This document shows, in pieces, positions 3,669 through 27,048 of a stretch of 64,000 nucleotides of DNA. The position numbers and the translations under genes were made by a program. The stretch lies in the IMG/VR virus record IMGVR_UViG_3300045988_149737. One strand, written 5' to 3'. Origin of the DNA: a virus. Taxonomy: Duplodnaviria; Heunggongvirae; Uroviricota; Caudoviricetes. The notes under the pieces are model-generated. The model did no database searches. It was not told the origin of the DNA and saw only the letters and a list, made by a program, of their open reading frames with translations. The first letter of the stretch is position 1; each line of letters opens with the position of its first letter.

Positions 3669-3700
3669 GGTGGGGTATATCCCCACCTTATCTTTGATTT
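3669..3700 (+). terminator. terminator-like hairpin after nrdA
   Basis: ggtgggg-tatat-ccccacc followed by T-rich ttatctttgattt. Confidence 0.5.
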
Positions 3701-13978: not shown

Positions 13979-14404
13979 ATGTTAGGTTTATTCAAAAAGA
14001 AAACTCGTAAAGCTGTTATCGAGGTCAAAAAAATGGAGAACCGAGATGCGGTTGAAGCCACCGTGTGGGGCGCGTACATGATCTCCTATGCCGATGGCAC
14101 ATGCGACGCAAAGGAAATTTCCATTCTTGAGAAAACAATTGCAGCTCTGCCTGCGTTTTCTCCGTTTGCTGGTGAGATTGCCCAAATGAGCGCCAATATC
14201 CGTGCTCAATACGAAGCCTCACCGCGCCGCGCTAATGCCCAGGCTTTACGTGAGCTGGCTGATGTGGCCGGGACTAATGATGCAGTAGATGTACTGTGTC
14301 TGTGCCTTGATATTGCCGACCAAGACGGTATTGGCGAACAAGAAGAGCTGGCCCTGAAAAAGATCGCACAGGCGCTTCAGTTGTCACTGGATGCTTATCT
14401 CTAA
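13979..14404 (+). CDS. TerB-like domain protein
   Basis: 141 aa; paired Asp-rich helices (ADGTCDAKEISILEK and DIADQDGIGEQEELALKKIA) resemble the TerB fold. Confidence 0.55.
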   Translation: MLGLFKKKTRKAVIEVKKMENRDAVEATVWGAYMISYADGTCDAKEISILEKTIAALPAFSPFAGEIAQMSANIRAQYEASPRRANAQALRELADVAGTNDAVDVLCLCLDIADQDGIGEQEELALKKIAQALQLSLDAYL

Positions 14405-14562
14405 TGCTTGAGAGATTCCGGCTTGTGACCGTCATTGCTCTTCTGGTGATGGCGGTGTTGGTGGATTTTACGGGAAAGATGATGTCTGTCATTTCTGATG
14501 GCGTCCTCATTGGTCTGGCGATCTACTTCGCTTATCCGCTAGTCCGTAAAGCAACGTGTTAA
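14404..14562 (+). CDS. small hydrophobic protein (52 aa, two predicted TM segments)
   Basis: ATG overlaps TerB-like stop (taATG); translated by hand as MLERFRLVTVIALLVMAVLVDF...LIGLAIYFAYPLVRKATC; below the ORF-track length cut-off. Confidence 0.4.
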   Translation: MLERFRLVTVIALLVMAVLVDFTGKMMSVISDGVLIGLAIYFAYPLVRKATC

Positions 14563-15326: not shown

Positions 15327-15608
15327 ATGGCATACGGTACAGGGATTTACAACAATAAAGGAATTAACGTTACTGGCTTCCTTACTCCTATTTTTTTTCT
15401 TGATCGATTTACTGCGTCATCAGGCTCTAAGACGTACTCCAATCCGCCACCGGGTAAATCGCTACATGCCGTGTGGTCATTGATGCCTCTTAACAACGAC
15501 AACTACATTAATTTACCTGTTCCAACAGTTACTATTAATGGAAATACGGTTAGTTGGTCAAATTTATATACGGGGCTTGGTTCTTACATATACACATACT
15601 GGGGATAA
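15327..15608 (+). CDS. hypothetical protein
   Basis: 93 aa; RBS aaggatgaaaa. Confidence 0.4.
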   Translation: MAYGTGIYNNKGINVTGFLTPIFFLDRFTASSGSKTYSNPPPGKSLHAVWSLMPLNNDNYINLPVPTVTINGNTVSWSNLYTGLGSYIYTYWG

Positions 15609-15610
15609 TT

Positions 15611-16225
15611 ATGTTCGGGATGTCAATTACTCAATCAGATGGAAGTTTGTGGATGAGTCCAGAATTTACTCCGCAAAATCTGATTAATAAAGGGACAATG
15701 TCTACATCTAAAGGTTCTGTTTTTCAAACATCAATCCCATCAAACAAATCATGCTTTTTCTTCATAAAAAGCAGTAATAAGGCGAACATGATGTTTATTC
15801 ATGAGCATAGTAACGGATACAATGCTCTCAGATTGCATCAGGTAAATGGTAGCCCCGGAACAATAACAGTTTATGCTTTTTCTGATATGGTGTTACCACA
15901 TTCTGGCTATGGCATTGCCATGTATAACAGCGCAGGCGCAATGGTGTATCACGGTGAGATGATGCCCCTTGATGCGAAACTTATCACTATTTCTGACCCT
16001 CAATTTACAATAGATATGGGGTATCCATGTGCGGTAATGCCTGCTATGGTTGGGGTATATAACTATAGACGAACCGATTACGACAGACCTGTCTATGTAA
16101 CAATGACAGGTGCAACTGGAAACCAAGTATATAACGGTCAATGGTATTCCGGTAATGTCACATGGGATATTAAGAAGATTTATACAAACAAAATTCTGGT
16201 GATAAATACCTCCAAGTATGATTAG
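15611..16225 (+). CDS. hypothetical protein
   Basis: 204 aa from ATG at 15611, 2 nt after the upstream stop; ORF track start at 15554 overlaps the upstream gene. Confidence 0.45.
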   Translation: MFGMSITQSDGSLWMSPEFTPQNLINKGTMSTSKGSVFQTSIPSNKSCFFFIKSSNKANMMFIHEHSNGYNALRLHQVNGSPGTITVYAFSDMVLPHSGYGIAMYNSAGAMVYHGEMMPLDAKLITISDPQFTIDMGYPCAVMPAMVGVYNYRRTDYDRPVYVTMTGATGNQVYNGQWYSGNVTWDIKKIYTNKILVINTSKYD

Positions 16226-16286
16226 CCAATGCCTTTATTTGAAGGATTGCCTGTTTATTTCTATTTAGTACCTTTTCATTTTTGAA

Positions 16287-16330
16287 ATAATTGCACCATT
16301 AAACAAATCACTTCTTAATGGTGCAATTAT
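16287..16330. promoter_or_regulatory. 16-bp-arm inverted repeat embedding the start codon of the downstream methyltransferase
   Basis: ataattgcaccattaa-(12 nt)-ttaatggtgcaattAT; right arm ends in the ATG at 16329. Confidence 0.5.
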
Positions 16331-18014
16331 GAATACAGCCCTTTCCATCATCGACGATGCCAACTCAAACACTGCTATCGACTATCGGCAGGAAATGAAC
16401 GTCATCCACGAAATTGTGGCCGAGTGCGAGAAAGAGATCGCCTTCATGTATCAGGTACACGACTTCGTTTATGGCGACGAACGCCACAACATGATTAATC
16501 GCCTGCTGAGACTAAACCATCGACCAGATGAAGATCGCTCGCGTTTAAATCGAGGTTGGTTGGATAAAGTCGATCTGGAATGGGTGAAACAGAATATTTG
16601 GGCCGAGTACTGGAGGAAGGTCACGGACATGACTAACGTTTTGCTGATCATGCCAGCTTCCCGTCGAGATGAGTGGCGCGAGCAGTTTATAGAGGGCAAA
16701 CAGGAAGTCATCAAAACTGACAGAACCGGCTACCAGATGAAGGTTAAAGAGTTCGTTGGTGTACCGGAGTTCAAAGCAGAAACGGTCATACCCACGATGC
16801 TTAATTTGCTGAATGACAGGCACAAATATCTCTCTGAGCGCGTGTATGGCTTGTTTAAGGCGCTGAGTCCTGCGCACAAGACAAATAAGACAAACGGTTT
16901 CAGCGAACGTCTGATAATCGCTGACTGCATTTCTGATTTCTGGCGGGACAGCGTTAGTGTGAACTATCGCAAAGAGGACTATATCGACGATCTGCGTGTC
17001 TTGCTTCATTTCTTCGCGCACAAAGAATTTATTACCATCAACCGCACTGCTGAGGTGCTATCAGCTGCGTATCGGGCAAACGACTGCCAGACCGGTGACT
17101 GGATGAACGTCGATGGAAATCTGATGCGCGTGAAGATGTTCAAGAACGGCAACGTTCACTTTGAAATACATCCTGACGTGGCCTGGAAGTTGAATGAGGT
17201 GCTGGCTTACAGTATGCCTGCTGCAATCCCCGCGCCATGTCGCACCGCGCCAAAAACACGGGCACCAAAGCAGTTCGGGTTAATCCAGAAGACGATCTCC
17301 GTGCCGGTTCGCACTGCGCTTCGTGACGGGCGATTGAGCAAAGACAAAGGCGTATGGTACTTCTCTGATTCAGCTCTCCAGAAGTCGCAGGTGGAAGAGC
17401 TTGAGCGCACACTGAGCTTCATTGGCGGCGTGCAGGAGAAAAAGCACTGGCAGTTCCCGTATGACATCGTCCATACGCTAAATACGATTGTGGCTACCGG
17501 TTTAATACCGGATACAAAATCACACCAGTTCTACCCTACCCCACGCTTGATTGCTGAGTACGTTGCCAGAGCCACTGAATTGAAGCCTGGTGAGAAGCTG
17601 CTGGAGCCTCAAGCCGGACGTGGGGATCTTCTGGCCTATATTAACGCCGATCTGGAAGATGTTACCTGCATAGAAATCGCACCTCTCTTCGCTGATATCC
17701 TGCGTGGAAAAGGGTATACGAACACGATTTGCTGCGACTTCATAAAGTGGTCTGAGGACAACGTAGGTTATCAGTTCGACAAAATCGTTATGAACCCGCC
17801 GTATTCGCTTGGTCGTCATAGAGAGCACACGCTGGCTGCGCTGGGGCATCTGAAAGTCGGCGGGCGTCTTGTAGCAGTATTGCCGGGCACTGCGCCAATA
17901 CTGGACTGGATGACGATGGATAATTACGTTTATGCCAGAGGGAAGTCGTTTACCAACGAGTTTGAAGACACAGGGATCACAGTCAGCGTATACGTTTTCA
18001 AACGCGTTAAATGA
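16329..18014 (+). CDS. two-domain protein: unknown N-terminal domain + C-terminal amino-methyltransferase (N6A/N4C type)
   Basis: 561 aa; C-terminal YPTPRLIAEYV, LEPQAGRGDLL (SAM-binding motif I) and VMNPPYS (motif IV); N-terminal ~380 aa without recognised motif. Confidence 0.8.
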   Translation: MNTALSIIDDANSNTAIDYRQEMNVIHEIVAECEKEIAFMYQVHDFVYGDERHNMINRLLRLNHRPDEDRSRLNRGWLDKVDLEWVKQNIWAEYWRKVTDMTNVLLIMPASRRDEWREQFIEGKQEVIKTDRTGYQMKVKEFVGVPEFKAETVIPTMLNLLNDRHKYLSERVYGLFKALSPAHKTNKTNGFSERLIIADCISDFWRDSVSVNYRKEDYIDDLRVLLHFFAHKEFITINRTAEVLSAAYRANDCQTGDWMNVDGNLMRVKMFKNGNVHFEIHPDVAWKLNEVLAYSMPAAIPAPCRTAPKTRAPKQFGLIQKTISVPVRTALRDGRLSKDKGVWYFSDSALQKSQVEELERTLSFIGGVQEKKHWQFPYDIVHTLNTIVATGLIPDTKSHQFYPTPRLIAEYVARATELKPGEKLLEPQAGRGDLLAYINADLEDVTCIEIAPLFADILRGKGYTNTICCDFIKWSEDNVGYQFDKIVMNPPYSLGRHREHTLAALGHLKVGGRLVAVLPGTAPILDWMTMDNYVYARGKSFTNEFEDTGITVSVYVFKRVK

Positions 18015-19160: not shown

Positions 19161-19279
19161 ACGCTACAAATCCTTCTGCGTGAATAAATAAAGGCCATAA
19201 GTTGTGGCCTTAAATAAATTGTTTTCTGCCTTTTCTTATTTGTGAAAATAACCACAACTAGAAAACAACGGAGTTAAGA

Positions 19280-19921
19280 ATGTCTAGTATTTCCGAAGCA
19301 CATATGTTCGCCGCTGGCGCTCATGGTGGCGTTGGTCAGAAAAGAAAATATACCGGCGAAAACTACATCAACCACCCGGTTGCTGTCCGAGAGATTGTTG
19401 CATTGCATGACGGAACCGTGGAGATGCAAATCGCGGCGCTTCTGCATGATGTGGTCGAAGACACCCATGTAACCATAGAGATGGTTCGTGATCACTTCGG
19501 TGAGCGCGTAGCTGAAATGGTTCAGGCTCTGACCAACATTGCAAGGCCAGAAGACGGCAATCGAATACAGCGTTTCATCATCAATGTCCGGGAGCTGGAG
19601 CAAAATCTCGACATGCAGACGCGCATGATCAAGCTGGCTGACCTGCTCGACAATACCTCTTCTATCGTGAGTCGCGATCCTGAGTTTTCAGCTATCTACC
19701 TTGCAGAGAAAGAGCTGATGCTGGACGTACTTTTTAACGGGAAGGAGATTGGTGCCAACGCTGATGTTGTCGAGTACATGGAGAGGATAGGTATAGAACA
19801 CCCGTTGTTATTAAGCGCAAAGGCGAAAGTCACTGAAGGTATTGCGCTTCTGAAACCGGTACACATCAAACGTTATGAAAAACACAAATCGCTGATCTGG
19901 AGCGCGTGGGAGGCTGCATGA
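19280..19921 (+). CDS. Rel/SpoT-like HD-domain hydrolase (putative (p)ppGpp hydrolase)
   Basis: YINHPVAVREIVALHDG ... AALLHDVVEDT ... EMVRDHFGERVAEMVQALT is collinear with the hydrolase domain of Rel/SpoT enzymes; no synthetase domain. Confidence 0.8.
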   Translation: MSSISEAHMFAAGAHGGVGQKRKYTGENYINHPVAVREIVALHDGTVEMQIAALLHDVVEDTHVTIEMVRDHFGERVAEMVQALTNIARPEDGNRIQRFIINVRELEQNLDMQTRMIKLADLLDNTSSIVSRDPEFSAIYLAEKELMLDVLFNGKEIGANADVVEYMERIGIEHPLLLSAKAKVTEGIALLKPVHIKRYEKHKSLIWSAWEAA

Positions 19922-24709: not shown

Positions 24710-24866
24710 CCCGTCTCCTTTATTTTAATTTGCGCAATTGTCGCCTTGTAGTGTACTCCAGCTACGACATTTAATCATTTATGAGAAATGCTGTTATCAC
24801 ATGGCAGACATAAGGCCATTTTGTTACTATCAAGCCCCTTTTCACTACAAAGAAGTAATGCCTACT

Positions 24867-26900
24867 ATGACCCAAGTCGCGAAGAAAATTCTGGTGACGT
24901 GCGCGCTGCCGTACGCTAACGGCTCAATCCACCTCGGCCATATGCTGGAGCACATCCAGGCTGATGTCTGGGTTCGTTACCAGCGAATGCGCGGCCACGA
25001 GGTTAATTTCATCTGTGCCGACGATGCCCACGGTACGCCGATCATGCTGAAAGCACAGCAGCTTGGTATCACACCGGAGCAGATGATTGGCGAAATGAGT
25101 CAGGAACACCAGACTGATTTCGCAGGCTTTAACATCAGCTATGACAACTATCACTCGACGCACAGCGAAGAGAACCGTCAGTTGTCTGAGCTTATCTATA
25201 CTCGCCTGAAAGAGAACGGTTTTATTAAAAACCGCACTATCTCTCAGTTGTACGACCCGGAAAAAGGCATGTTCCTGCCGGATCGTTTTGTAAAAGGCAC
25301 CTGCCCGAAATGTAAAGCGCCAGATCAATACGGCGATAACTGTGAAGTCTGCGGCGCAACATATAGCCCGACTGAATTGATCGAGCCGAAATCGGTGGTT
25401 TCTGGCGCTACCCCGGTAATGCGTGATTCCGAACACTTCTTCTTTGATCTGCCTTCTTTCAGCGAAATGCTGCAGGCATGGACCCGCAGCGGCGCGTTGC
25501 AGGAGCAGGTGGCGAACAAAATGCAGGAATGGTTTGAATCCGGCCTGCAACAGTGGGATATCTCCCGCGATGCGCCTTACTTCGGTTTTGAAATTCCGAA
25601 CGCGCCGGGCAAATATTTCTACGTCTGGCTGGACGCGCCGATTGGCTACATGGGTTCCTTCAAGAATCTGTGCGACAAGCGCGGCGATACCACCAGCTTC
25701 GATGAATACTGGAAGAAAGACTCCACCGCCGAGCTGTACCACTTCATCGGTAAAGATATTGTTTACTTCCACAGCCTGTTCTGGCCTGCCATGCTGGAAG
25801 GCAGCAACTTCCGCAAGCCGACCAACCTGTTTGTTCATGGCTATGTGACGGTGAACGGCGCGAAGATGTCCAAGTCTCGCGGCACGTTCATTAAAGCCAG
25901 CACCTGGCTGAATCATTTTGACGCTGATAGCTTGCGCTACTACTACACCGCGAAACTCTCTTCGCGCATCGATGATATCGACCTGAACCTGGAAGATTTC
26001 GTTCAGCGCGTGAATGCCGATATCGTCAACAAAGTGGTTAACCTGGCCTCCCGTAATGCAGGCTTTATCAACAAGCGTTTTGACGGCGTGCTGGCAAGCG
26101 AACTGGCTGACCCTGAACTGTACAAAACCTTTACCGATGCCGCTGAAGTGATTGGCGAAGCATGGGAAAGCCGCGAATTTGGTAAAGCTATCCGTGAAAT
26201 CATGGCATTGGCTGACCTGGCTAACCGCTATGTCGATGAACAGGCTCCGTGGGTGGTGGCGAAGCAGGAAGGTCGCGATGCCGATCTGCAAGCGATTTGC
26301 TCTATGGGCATTAACCTGTTCCGCGTGCTGATGACGTACCTGAAACCGGTACTGCCGAAACTGACTGAACGTGCGGAAGCGTTCCTGAATACGGAACTGA
26401 CCTGGGATGGTATCCAGCAACCGCTGCTGGCACATAAAGTGAATCCGTTCAAAGCACTGTATAACCGCATCGACATGAAGCAGGTTGAAGCACTGGTGGA
26501 AGCATCCAAAGAAGAAGTGAAAGCCACCGCCGCGCCAGTTACTGGCCCGCTGGCTGATGATCCGATTCAGGAAACCATCACCTTTGACGACTTCGCCAAA
26601 GTTGACCTGCGTGTGGCACTGATTGAAAACGCGGAGTTTGTTGAAGGCTCTGACAAACTGCTGCGTCTGACACTGGATCTCGGTGGTGAAAAGCGTAATG
26701 TCTTCTCCGGCATCCGTTCTGCTTATCCAGACCCACAGGCACTGATTGGTCGTCACACCATTATGGTGGCTAACCTGGCTCCGCGTAAAATGCGCTTCGG
26801 TATCTCCGAAGGCATGGTGATGGCTGCTGGCCCTGGCGGAAAAGACATCTTCCTGTTAAGCCCGGATGCCGGTGCTAAACCAGGCCACCAAGTTAAGTAA
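24867..26900 (+). CDS. metG: methionyl-tRNA synthetase
   Basis: 677 aa from ATG at 24867 ([30 protein letters not shown]); matches E. coli MetG as I recall it; ORF track start at 24738 is an upstream in-frame extension. Confidence 0.95.
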
Positions 26901-26948: not shown

Positions 26949-27034
26949 TATAGACACAATCCCTCCTGATTTACACAATCCCTAAAACAATTTGTTTTCT
27001 ACCTTTTGTTGATTGAGATAATAAGCCACATAAG

Positions 27035-27048
27035 AAAACAAATTGTTT
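27035..27048. promoter_or_regulatory. operator-like palindrome AAACAA-at-TGTTT (family 1) in a promoter region
   Basis: Lies after TTTTCT(-35)-17 bp-ATAATA(-10); a second copy aaaacaatttgtttt at 26985-26999 overlaps the -35. Confidence 0.45.

Follow-up and report, generated by a model that had tools for sequence, protein, structure and literature searches.

The question raised by the locus described here is why the start codon of a phage-borne methyltransferase gene should form the end of a perfect inverted repeat, and what this arrangement might do for expression of the gene. The gene, an open reading frame (ORF) of 561 amino acids (aa) at 16329-18014 on the + strand, is located in IMG/VR virus record IMGVR_UViG_3300045988_149737, and the whole stretch of 64,000 nucleotides that was analysed is referred to below as the window. 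The window is an SSU5-type phage-plasmid of E. coli (98-99.7% identical to E. coli SSU5-group phage-plasmids); among these are phage Cyrano (accession number, OV696614; 98.3% identical), CMS-2020a, and many non-mobilizable plasmids of approximately 110 kb, while Salmonella phage SSU5 and Klebsiella phage-plasmids were 81-88% identical to the region. In total, 564 plasmid records matched the region. The methyltransferase gene sits in the accessory early region of the element. Elements of the SSU5 type occur very frequently in Enterobacteriaceae from clinical and animal sources, and their gene regulation is essentially undescribed.

The two arms of the repeat (16287-16302 and 16315-16330, + strand) are 16 nt each, 100% complementary, and 12 nt apart, and the perfect 16-bp-arm repeat ending in ATG that an earlier sequence-only reading had placed at 16287-16330 is thereby confirmed. 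The left arm, ATAATTGCACCATTAA, corresponds to the 5′ arm of an RNA hairpin and covers -11 to +5 of a predicted promoter. The 12-nt loop (16303-16314, + strand), ACAAATCACTTC, is a degenerate remnant of an operator, AGAAAACAAnTTGTTT, and the right (3′) arm, TTAATGGTGCAATTAT, holds a Shine-Dalgarno (SD)-like GGTG (16320-16323) and closes with the AT of the ATG (16329-16330). When perfect inverted repeats were counted whose loops did not exceed 40 nt, arms of 16 bp were reached in none of 300 first-order Markov simulations of the 64-kb window (simulated maximum, 14), and two perfect repeats with 16-bp arms were found in the actual window. The RNA fold of 16270-16360 was calculated as -23 kcal/mol (z = -6.1), and none of 200 shuffled sequences was equally stable. 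The inverted repeat is real and non-random. No match was obtained with the Rfam 15 covariance models in 15900-16700 at E ≤ 1.

The repeat is not a free-standing element: in one lineage, a single copy of a promoter/operator cassette has been elaborated into it. The upstream region was read in 71 IMG/VR loci, SSU5, Cyrano, pJN2-26, and ten plasmids. Comparison of the window with SSU5 and Klebsiella pJN2-26 exposed a different short palindrome, AAACAA-N-TTGTTT, directly before the SD sequence. The truly recurrent palindrome of the genome, AAACAANTTGTTT, is distinct from the arms; it gave 16 matches in the window (3.5 expected), located 18-38 nt ahead of start codons, and has been lost from the methyltransferase gene copy. 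Using nhmmer and a profile built from the orthologous upstream regions, a cassette of approximately 48 nt was detected in at least 12 copies, all on the + strand, with starts at 3692, 13908, 14637, 16271 (methyltransferase gene), 19229, 27002, 29110, 29488, 29973, 30927, 31626, and 32110. The consensus was TTTCTG/TTGACG, CCTT(T/A)TC, approximately 8 nt, TGnGA(T/A)AAT, 8-10 nt, AGAAAACAAnTTGTTT, 18-38 nt, and ATG, and the methyltransferase upstream region is homologous to the other cassettes almost column for column. The operator AGAAAACAAnTTGTTT is intact at the position of the loop in SSU5, in Salmonella and Klebsiella elements, and in a second E. coli lineage (L011 type). A terminator hairpin lies immediately 5′ of several copies (e.g., 3692, 19229, and 30927) and of the orthologous methyltransferase cassette in SSU5 and pJN2-26, and the cassette must therefore supply a promoter.

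The most conserved block of the cassette is TGnGA(T/A)AAT, the columns of which are invariant or nearly so among orthologues. In the methyltransferase copy it corresponds to a predicted extended -10 element, TGaAATAAT (16283-16291, + strand), recognised from the nhmmer cassette profile, the aligned copies, and orthologue conservation. The left arm begins at the second base of this -10 hexamer and extends to about +5. A putative, weak -35-like hexamer, TTTAGT (16264-16269, + strand), is located 16 nt upstream of the -10 and aligns to TTTACG, TTGACG, or TTTCTG of the other copies, and transcription is predicted to start near A16298, approximately 7 nt past the -10 hexamer. Since the left arm is the predicted -10 element of the promoter cassette, the hairpin is probably present only in transcripts that read through from upstream. 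Neither the identity of the left arm with the -10 element of a conserved cassette nor the restriction of the perfect repeat to one E. coli lineage had been noticed in the sequence-only reading.

From its distribution, the cassette looks like a shared control unit of accessory and early genes in SSU5-type phage-plasmids; no description of it was found in the searchable literature. TerB-domain (P1 TciA-like) and TciB-like genes (13979-14562) lie behind a cassette copy of their own, as does an HD-domain phosphohydrolase gene (19280-19921). In some cassettes, pairs of the palindrome approximately 51 bp apart flank the promoter (26985-27000 with 27033-27048; 19212-19224 with approximately 19262); this doubling accounts for the other 16-bp inverted repeat of the window and suggests cooperative or looping repression.

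The strong pairing between the -10 element and the ribosome-binding site (RBS) is unique to the methyltransferase copy. Its helix was calculated as -19.1 kcal/mol (z = -6.9) with 14 of the 15 RBS/AUG bases paired, and the corresponding values for the other 11 of the 12 window cassettes were -1 to -9 kcal/mol. The suggestion of the sequence-only reading that pairing in RNA would sequester the start site is thus supported, the fold burying both SD and AUG. The RNA beginning at the predicted transcription start site gave merely -2.2 kcal/mol. Among relatives, sequences of the window type form the 16-bp helix (-16.5 to -19.5 kcal/mol). The L011 type, the protein of which is 99% identical and which has kept the operator, forms a 12-bp helix, ATAATTACACCA/TGGTGTAATTAT (-12 to -14 kcal/mol), a diverged lineage with 80% protein identity (L044) forms a 14-bp helix (-14.9 kcal/mol), and one further locus (L050) is intermediate (-9.7 kcal/mol). 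In SSU5 and the Salmonella, Enterobacter, Cronobacter, and Klebsiella types, CACCA/UGGUG alone is paired (-2 to -7 kcal/mol). The three lineages with a long helix (window type, L011 type, and L044) all carry intact genes of 561 aa. These relatives represent a natural evolutionary series in which the helix is first absent, then 12 bp, and finally 16 bp long, and along which a gate could be seen to arise from a promoter and a ribosome-binding site.

Between these lineages the paired positions change together. Pair 24-57 is G-C in the window type and A-U in the L011 type, pair 25-56 is C-G or A-U (A-U in L044), and pair 23-58 is U-A or U·G (U·G in L044). In an alignment of 25 sequences, 82.8% of the pairing cells were paired, versus 28-50% in slid controls, and 9 double-change cells, with double changes at three pairs, were counted versus 4.7 ± 1.6 in shuffles (1 of 500 as high); the observed covariation score was matched by 1-2 of 500 shuffles. 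The covarying positions fall in the discriminator and in the spacer between SD and AUG, two segments with no other constraint. Each of the three wobble pairs reads G·U in the + strand, and A·C would stand in its place in the - strand. Judged from these alignments, pairing in the + strand RNA is favoured both by the covariation and by the single-sided changes, which are G·U wobbles on that strand only. Three arm variants, each of which keeps the pairing, were observed within the window type: C10-to-U and C11-to-U, both giving G·U, and a double transversion from T-A to A-T. The between-lineage covariation was weighted above these within-clade variants because most of the latter sit in truncated genes.

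The reading that we tentatively prefer, with a little less than even confidence, is that the repeat works as a gate by which the methyltransferase is translated solely from the RNA of its own promoter. In this E. coli lineage, evolution of the cassette has made the predicted -10 and discriminator region, as the left arm, perfectly complementary to the SD and start-codon region, as the right arm. RNA containing both arms would arise from transcripts entering from the upstream moron genes, which are expressed in the lysogen and lack a strong terminator. Such read-through RNA would fold (approximately -19 kcal/mol) with SD and AUG hidden and remain untranslated, and in this state it would probably be prone to Rho termination and decay. 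Transcripts from the gene's own promoter would begin inside the left arm (approximately 16298), lack the 5′ arm, be open (approximately -2 kcal/mol), and be translatable. Methyltransferase synthesis would in this way depend on the gene's own promoter and be shielded from transcription of its neighbours.

Control of this type is known from phage T4. According to one account (PMC3014915, section 29), early read-through transcripts of gene e and of I-TevI carry a hairpin that sequesters the ribosome-binding site and are not translated, and a promoter located in the 5′ arm gives transcripts without that arm, which are translated. The layout is alike, with the -10 in the left arm and SD and AUG in the right arm, the promoter in the present case being a predicted one. 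In contrast to the T4 late promoter, the -10 here is of the sigma-70-type extended form and belongs to a temperate phage-plasmid; the gene under control encodes a methyltransferase, and both the start site and the effect of the gate are predictions here. The arrangement adds a further example of an established type of control and not a new kind of system, and the findings leave the textbook picture unchanged; the locus offers a concrete model in which a promoter/operator cassette shared by many genes would be combined with a translational gate specific to one of them.

The immediate upstream region would allow a supply of read-through RNA. The two genes directly upstream (15327-16225) have approximately 80% DNA identity to genes for membrane and outer-membrane proteins in JenP1, JenP2, and BRET, which are unrelated phages, and these JenP1-like membrane-protein genes are absent from SSU5. 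The segment is a moron-like insertion that, in the window lineage, has displaced the terminator upstream of the methyltransferase cassette. A strong GC-rich terminator is present at the same position in SSU5-type and L011-type elements. In the window, just past the stop codon of the upstream moron gene, there is a weak hairpin resembling a terminator, CAAT(G)CCTT/AAGGATTG, with a T-rich tract behind it (16227-16266, + strand); the RNA fold of 16215-16290 was -12.1 kcal/mol (z = -1.9), and a terminator scan of 15900-16500 called no terminator, this weak hairpin included.

Public RNA sequencing data of Cyrano in LF82 lysogens (PMC9928086, S1 Table) give expression values, as log2 of fragments per kilobase per million (FPKM) + 5, for both sides of the cassette. 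The second upstream gene, CYRAN_89, had values of 5.2-6.5 in samples B1 to MB6. The methyltransferase gene, CYRAN_90, had values of 2.95-3.4 in culture (B1 and B6), near the floor of 2.32, and reached 5.6-6.0 in the MB6 samples (PMC9928086, S1 Table). These data show that upstream transcription exists and yields little methyltransferase mRNA in lysogens; the pattern is compatible with an untranslated, polarity-prone read-through RNA and does not prove it.

Several observations weigh against the proposed gate. The promoter is predicted from conservation and consensus only, the -35 is weak, and a generic sigma-70 promoter scan made no call at the repeat. The long helix is not essential to the gene, which is also expressed in relatives that lack this structure (SSU5, Salmonella, and Klebsiella). 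The L011 type and L044 retain helices of 12-14 bp, though the L011 type has the strong GC-rich terminator just upstream, and insulation from read-through has therefore no obvious need there. Furthermore, of the within-clade variants, C10-to-U is present in intact genes, while C11-to-U is confined to truncated or frameshifted genes and the T-A to A-T double change to truncated genes; structure-preserving variants in dead genes fit self-correction by template switching as well as they fit selection.

An alternative that we regard as unlikely, while giving it real weight, is that the true start of transcription lies upstream of 16287 and the hairpin is carried by every methyltransferase mRNA, where it would act as a constitutive throttle or as a lock opened by RNase III, a helicase, or a phage protein. 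The great stability of the hairpin with its buried SD and AUG would suit such a device, a TTGAAG...TATTTA pair specific to the window lineage can be read upstream, and the methyltransferase mRNA, scarce in lysogens, increases under a single condition. However, full pairing of SD and AUG at -19 kcal/mol would all but abolish translation of a conserved, intact gene of 561 aa unless an additional factor intervened, and there is no evidence of one. No part of the cassette, which must contain a promoter, is better conserved than the -10 block lying within the left arm. Substrates of RNase III typically have approximately two helical turns, and the present stem is shorter than that.

Nearly the same low probability is assigned to the palindrome being a neutral by-product, in which a template-switch (quasi-palindrome) mutation, arising as the DNA is replicated, perfected the arms and keeps them identical with no selected function. 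The starting material would have been favourable, given that the -10 (ATAAT), the AT-rich start (ATTAT-G), and CACCA/TGGTG are already quasi-palindromic and SSU5-type relatives are partly complementary. In one plasmid, the exact T-A to A-T double transversion was the sole difference in 124 nt, it is found in truncated-gene lineages, and the C11-to-U wobble is confined to dead genes. Against this, three diverged lineages with intact genes hold long helices of different sequences and loops, and the 11 remaining cassettes, which share the -10, have gained no such helix. G·U variants persist, though template switching would tend to remove them, and no pair-disrupting variant was found in the approximately 30 window-type copies that were read (IMG/VR loci and six plasmids).

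It is less probable still, and in our estimate quite unlikely, that the repeat acts as DNA, either as a symmetric operator for a dimeric regulator or as a cruciform that makes the promoter sensitive to supercoiling. The overlap with the predicted -10/+1 region and the use of palindromic DNA sites elsewhere in the genome (AAACAANTTGTTT, as counted above) would be in keeping with a DNA site. However, the arm sequence is unique in the window and indicates no apparent regulon, the recurrent palindrome is the very element lost from the methyltransferase copy, the symmetric covariation and + strand-specific G·U pairs are expected of RNA pairing and not of protein recognition, and the variable spacer (12 nt; 21 nt in the L011 type) is atypical for an operator. 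Exact occurrences of TTGCACCATTAA in the window were limited to the two arms, with 13 looser matches versus 7.4 expected, an excess that is not large. The protein-binding palindrome suggested in the sequence-only reading was accordingly not borne out, and a reading of the arm as the half-site of a regulon operator was downgraded, the arm sequence not recurring elsewhere in the window. Finally, an intrinsic terminator of the upstream gene, which the intergenic position downstream of the moron genes and a methyltransferase mRNA level 5-13-fold below that of the upstream gene in culture might suggest, was rejected as very improbable, because the stem is AT-rich and not GC-rich, no U tract follows (GAAUACAGCC/GAATACAG comes next), the hairpin overlaps the start codon of the next gene, and the scan of 15900-16500 was negative.

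The protein under this control is an ordinary member of a large, already annotated, functionally uncharacterised phage family. The two-domain organization read from the sequence earlier, a methyltransferase core preceded by a large N-terminal region of unknown function, was reproduced, and the product is indeed the second methyltransferase of the window in addition to a Dam-family enzyme (PF05869, 10832-11449). The N-terminal region (aa 1-392; 16329-17504, + strand) comprises a helical bundle and alpha/beta subdomains, and a Pfam search returned DUF4942 (PF13708) as the only match of the protein, within this region (aa 140-295; 16746-17213, + strand; 74.5 bits versus a gathering cutoff of 25). 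The core (aa 395-561; 17511-18011, + strand) is a class I S-adenosylmethionine (SAM)-dependent methyltransferase with FYPTP (17526-17543), EPxAGxG (motif I, 17601-17630), and NPPY (motif IV, 17793-17804), i.e., the motif order X-I-IV with (D/N/S)PP(Y/F/W). In PHROGs, the protein matched phrog_6263 'DNA methyltransferase', an orphan phage N6-adenine methyltransferase family, from end to end (protein 1-561, profile 1-548; 993 bits). It is 99% identical to the RefSeq 'DUF4942 domain-containing protein' of E. coli plasmids, and all annotated records name the ORF 'DUF4942 domain-containing protein', 'DNA modification methylase', or 'class I SAM-dependent methyltransferase'. Compared with the DUF4942/phrog_6263 proteins of SSU5, pHCM2-like plasmids, and lambdoid prophages, it is the same from end to end, with no difference at the protein level.

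An alignment of 28 sequences, down to 33% identity, was conserved from end to end. Invariant residues of the core were QFYPxP (400-405), NPP (489-491), P427, A429, and G430, with G432 present in at least 90%, and the invariant polar residues of the N-terminal region were S180, H183, T185, N186, D221, R223, D262, H277, and H281. A search of 1.8 billion proteins with the N-terminal profile gave 1581 clusters at 50% identity, and of the best 150 listed nearly all were 510-580 aa long; the two-domain architecture is fixed and common. Distant members are found in the early regions of lambdoid prophages, adjoining other orphan methyltransferases. With a family of approximately 1600 clusters at 50% identity, the methylome of one element would annotate many genes at once.

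The fold of the core is that of a class I Rossmann methyltransferase, similar to solved DNA adenine methyltransferases (M.TaqI and HsdM), and the family profile matched M.TaqI and EcoR124 HsdM weakly (E of approximately 4e-4 to 6e-4). The top fold matches also included RNA N6-methyladenosine (m6A) methyltransferases (METTL5 and KsgA/Erm), and the substrate class is therefore not settled by fold. The protein ends approximately 70 residues past NPPY and thus lacks a C-terminal target-recognition domain; no recognisable target-recognition domain was found, and the N-terminal region of approximately 390 aa had no solved structural relative. In this it differs from the gamma-class N6-adenine DNA methyltransferases (M.TaqI, M.BseCI, CamA, and type I HsdM), having the conserved 390-aa N-terminal region in place of that domain. 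Unlike a fast-evolving target-recognition domain, the N-terminal region is at least as conserved as the catalytic core, which hints at a fixed binding or catalytic role.

We infer that the protein is an orphan N6-adenine DNA methyltransferase that would protect phage DNA. An anti-restriction role is plausible by analogy with phage orphan methyltransferases directed against restriction (phage Dam-like enzymes and P1 Dmt), which it resembles in being phage-borne with no cognate nuclease adjoining; unlike in these, the gene is dispensable, as it is truncated or interrupted by IS21 in many relatives. A rather improbable alternative is that the protein is not a conventional sequence-specific DNA methyltransferase, and that the N-terminal region steers its catalytic core to an unusual substrate or carries a second activity. 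Such a substrate could be DNA, bound non-specifically or by its structure, or host RNA, in view of the top fold matches to METTL5, KsgA, and Erm. If this were true, the promoter-embedded hairpin would exist because stray expression in the lysogen is harmful. No functional study, recognition sequence, or m6A report for DUF4942, SSU5, or pHCM2 methyltransferases was found in the searchable literature. Membership in a defence system was rejected, the PADLOC matches (mad2 and MTase_II) being limited to the catalytic domain (aa 394-523) and the neighbouring genes giving no matches.

Truncation of the gene after approximately codon 157 is seen in many natural relatives (breakpoint at 16802-16808 of the window; L064-L072, and L168, which is NZ_CP133922.1 82604-89288). 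In these, the remainder of the gene and approximately 8 kb of downstream small genes, up to a metG-like gene, are replaced by a type I restriction-modification system (hsdM, hsdS, and hsdR) together with apbC and a gene for an S24 peptidase. What is left, a remnant of 158 aa, occurs so often that a separate PHROG (16000) exists for it. In further copies, the gene is interrupted by IS21 (L059-L061) or frameshifted (L057 and L043). In the window, the ORF of 720 aa at 24738-26900 corresponds to a gene that is annotated in related plasmids as methionine-tRNA ligase (metG); such a cargo is unusual in a phage-plasmid.

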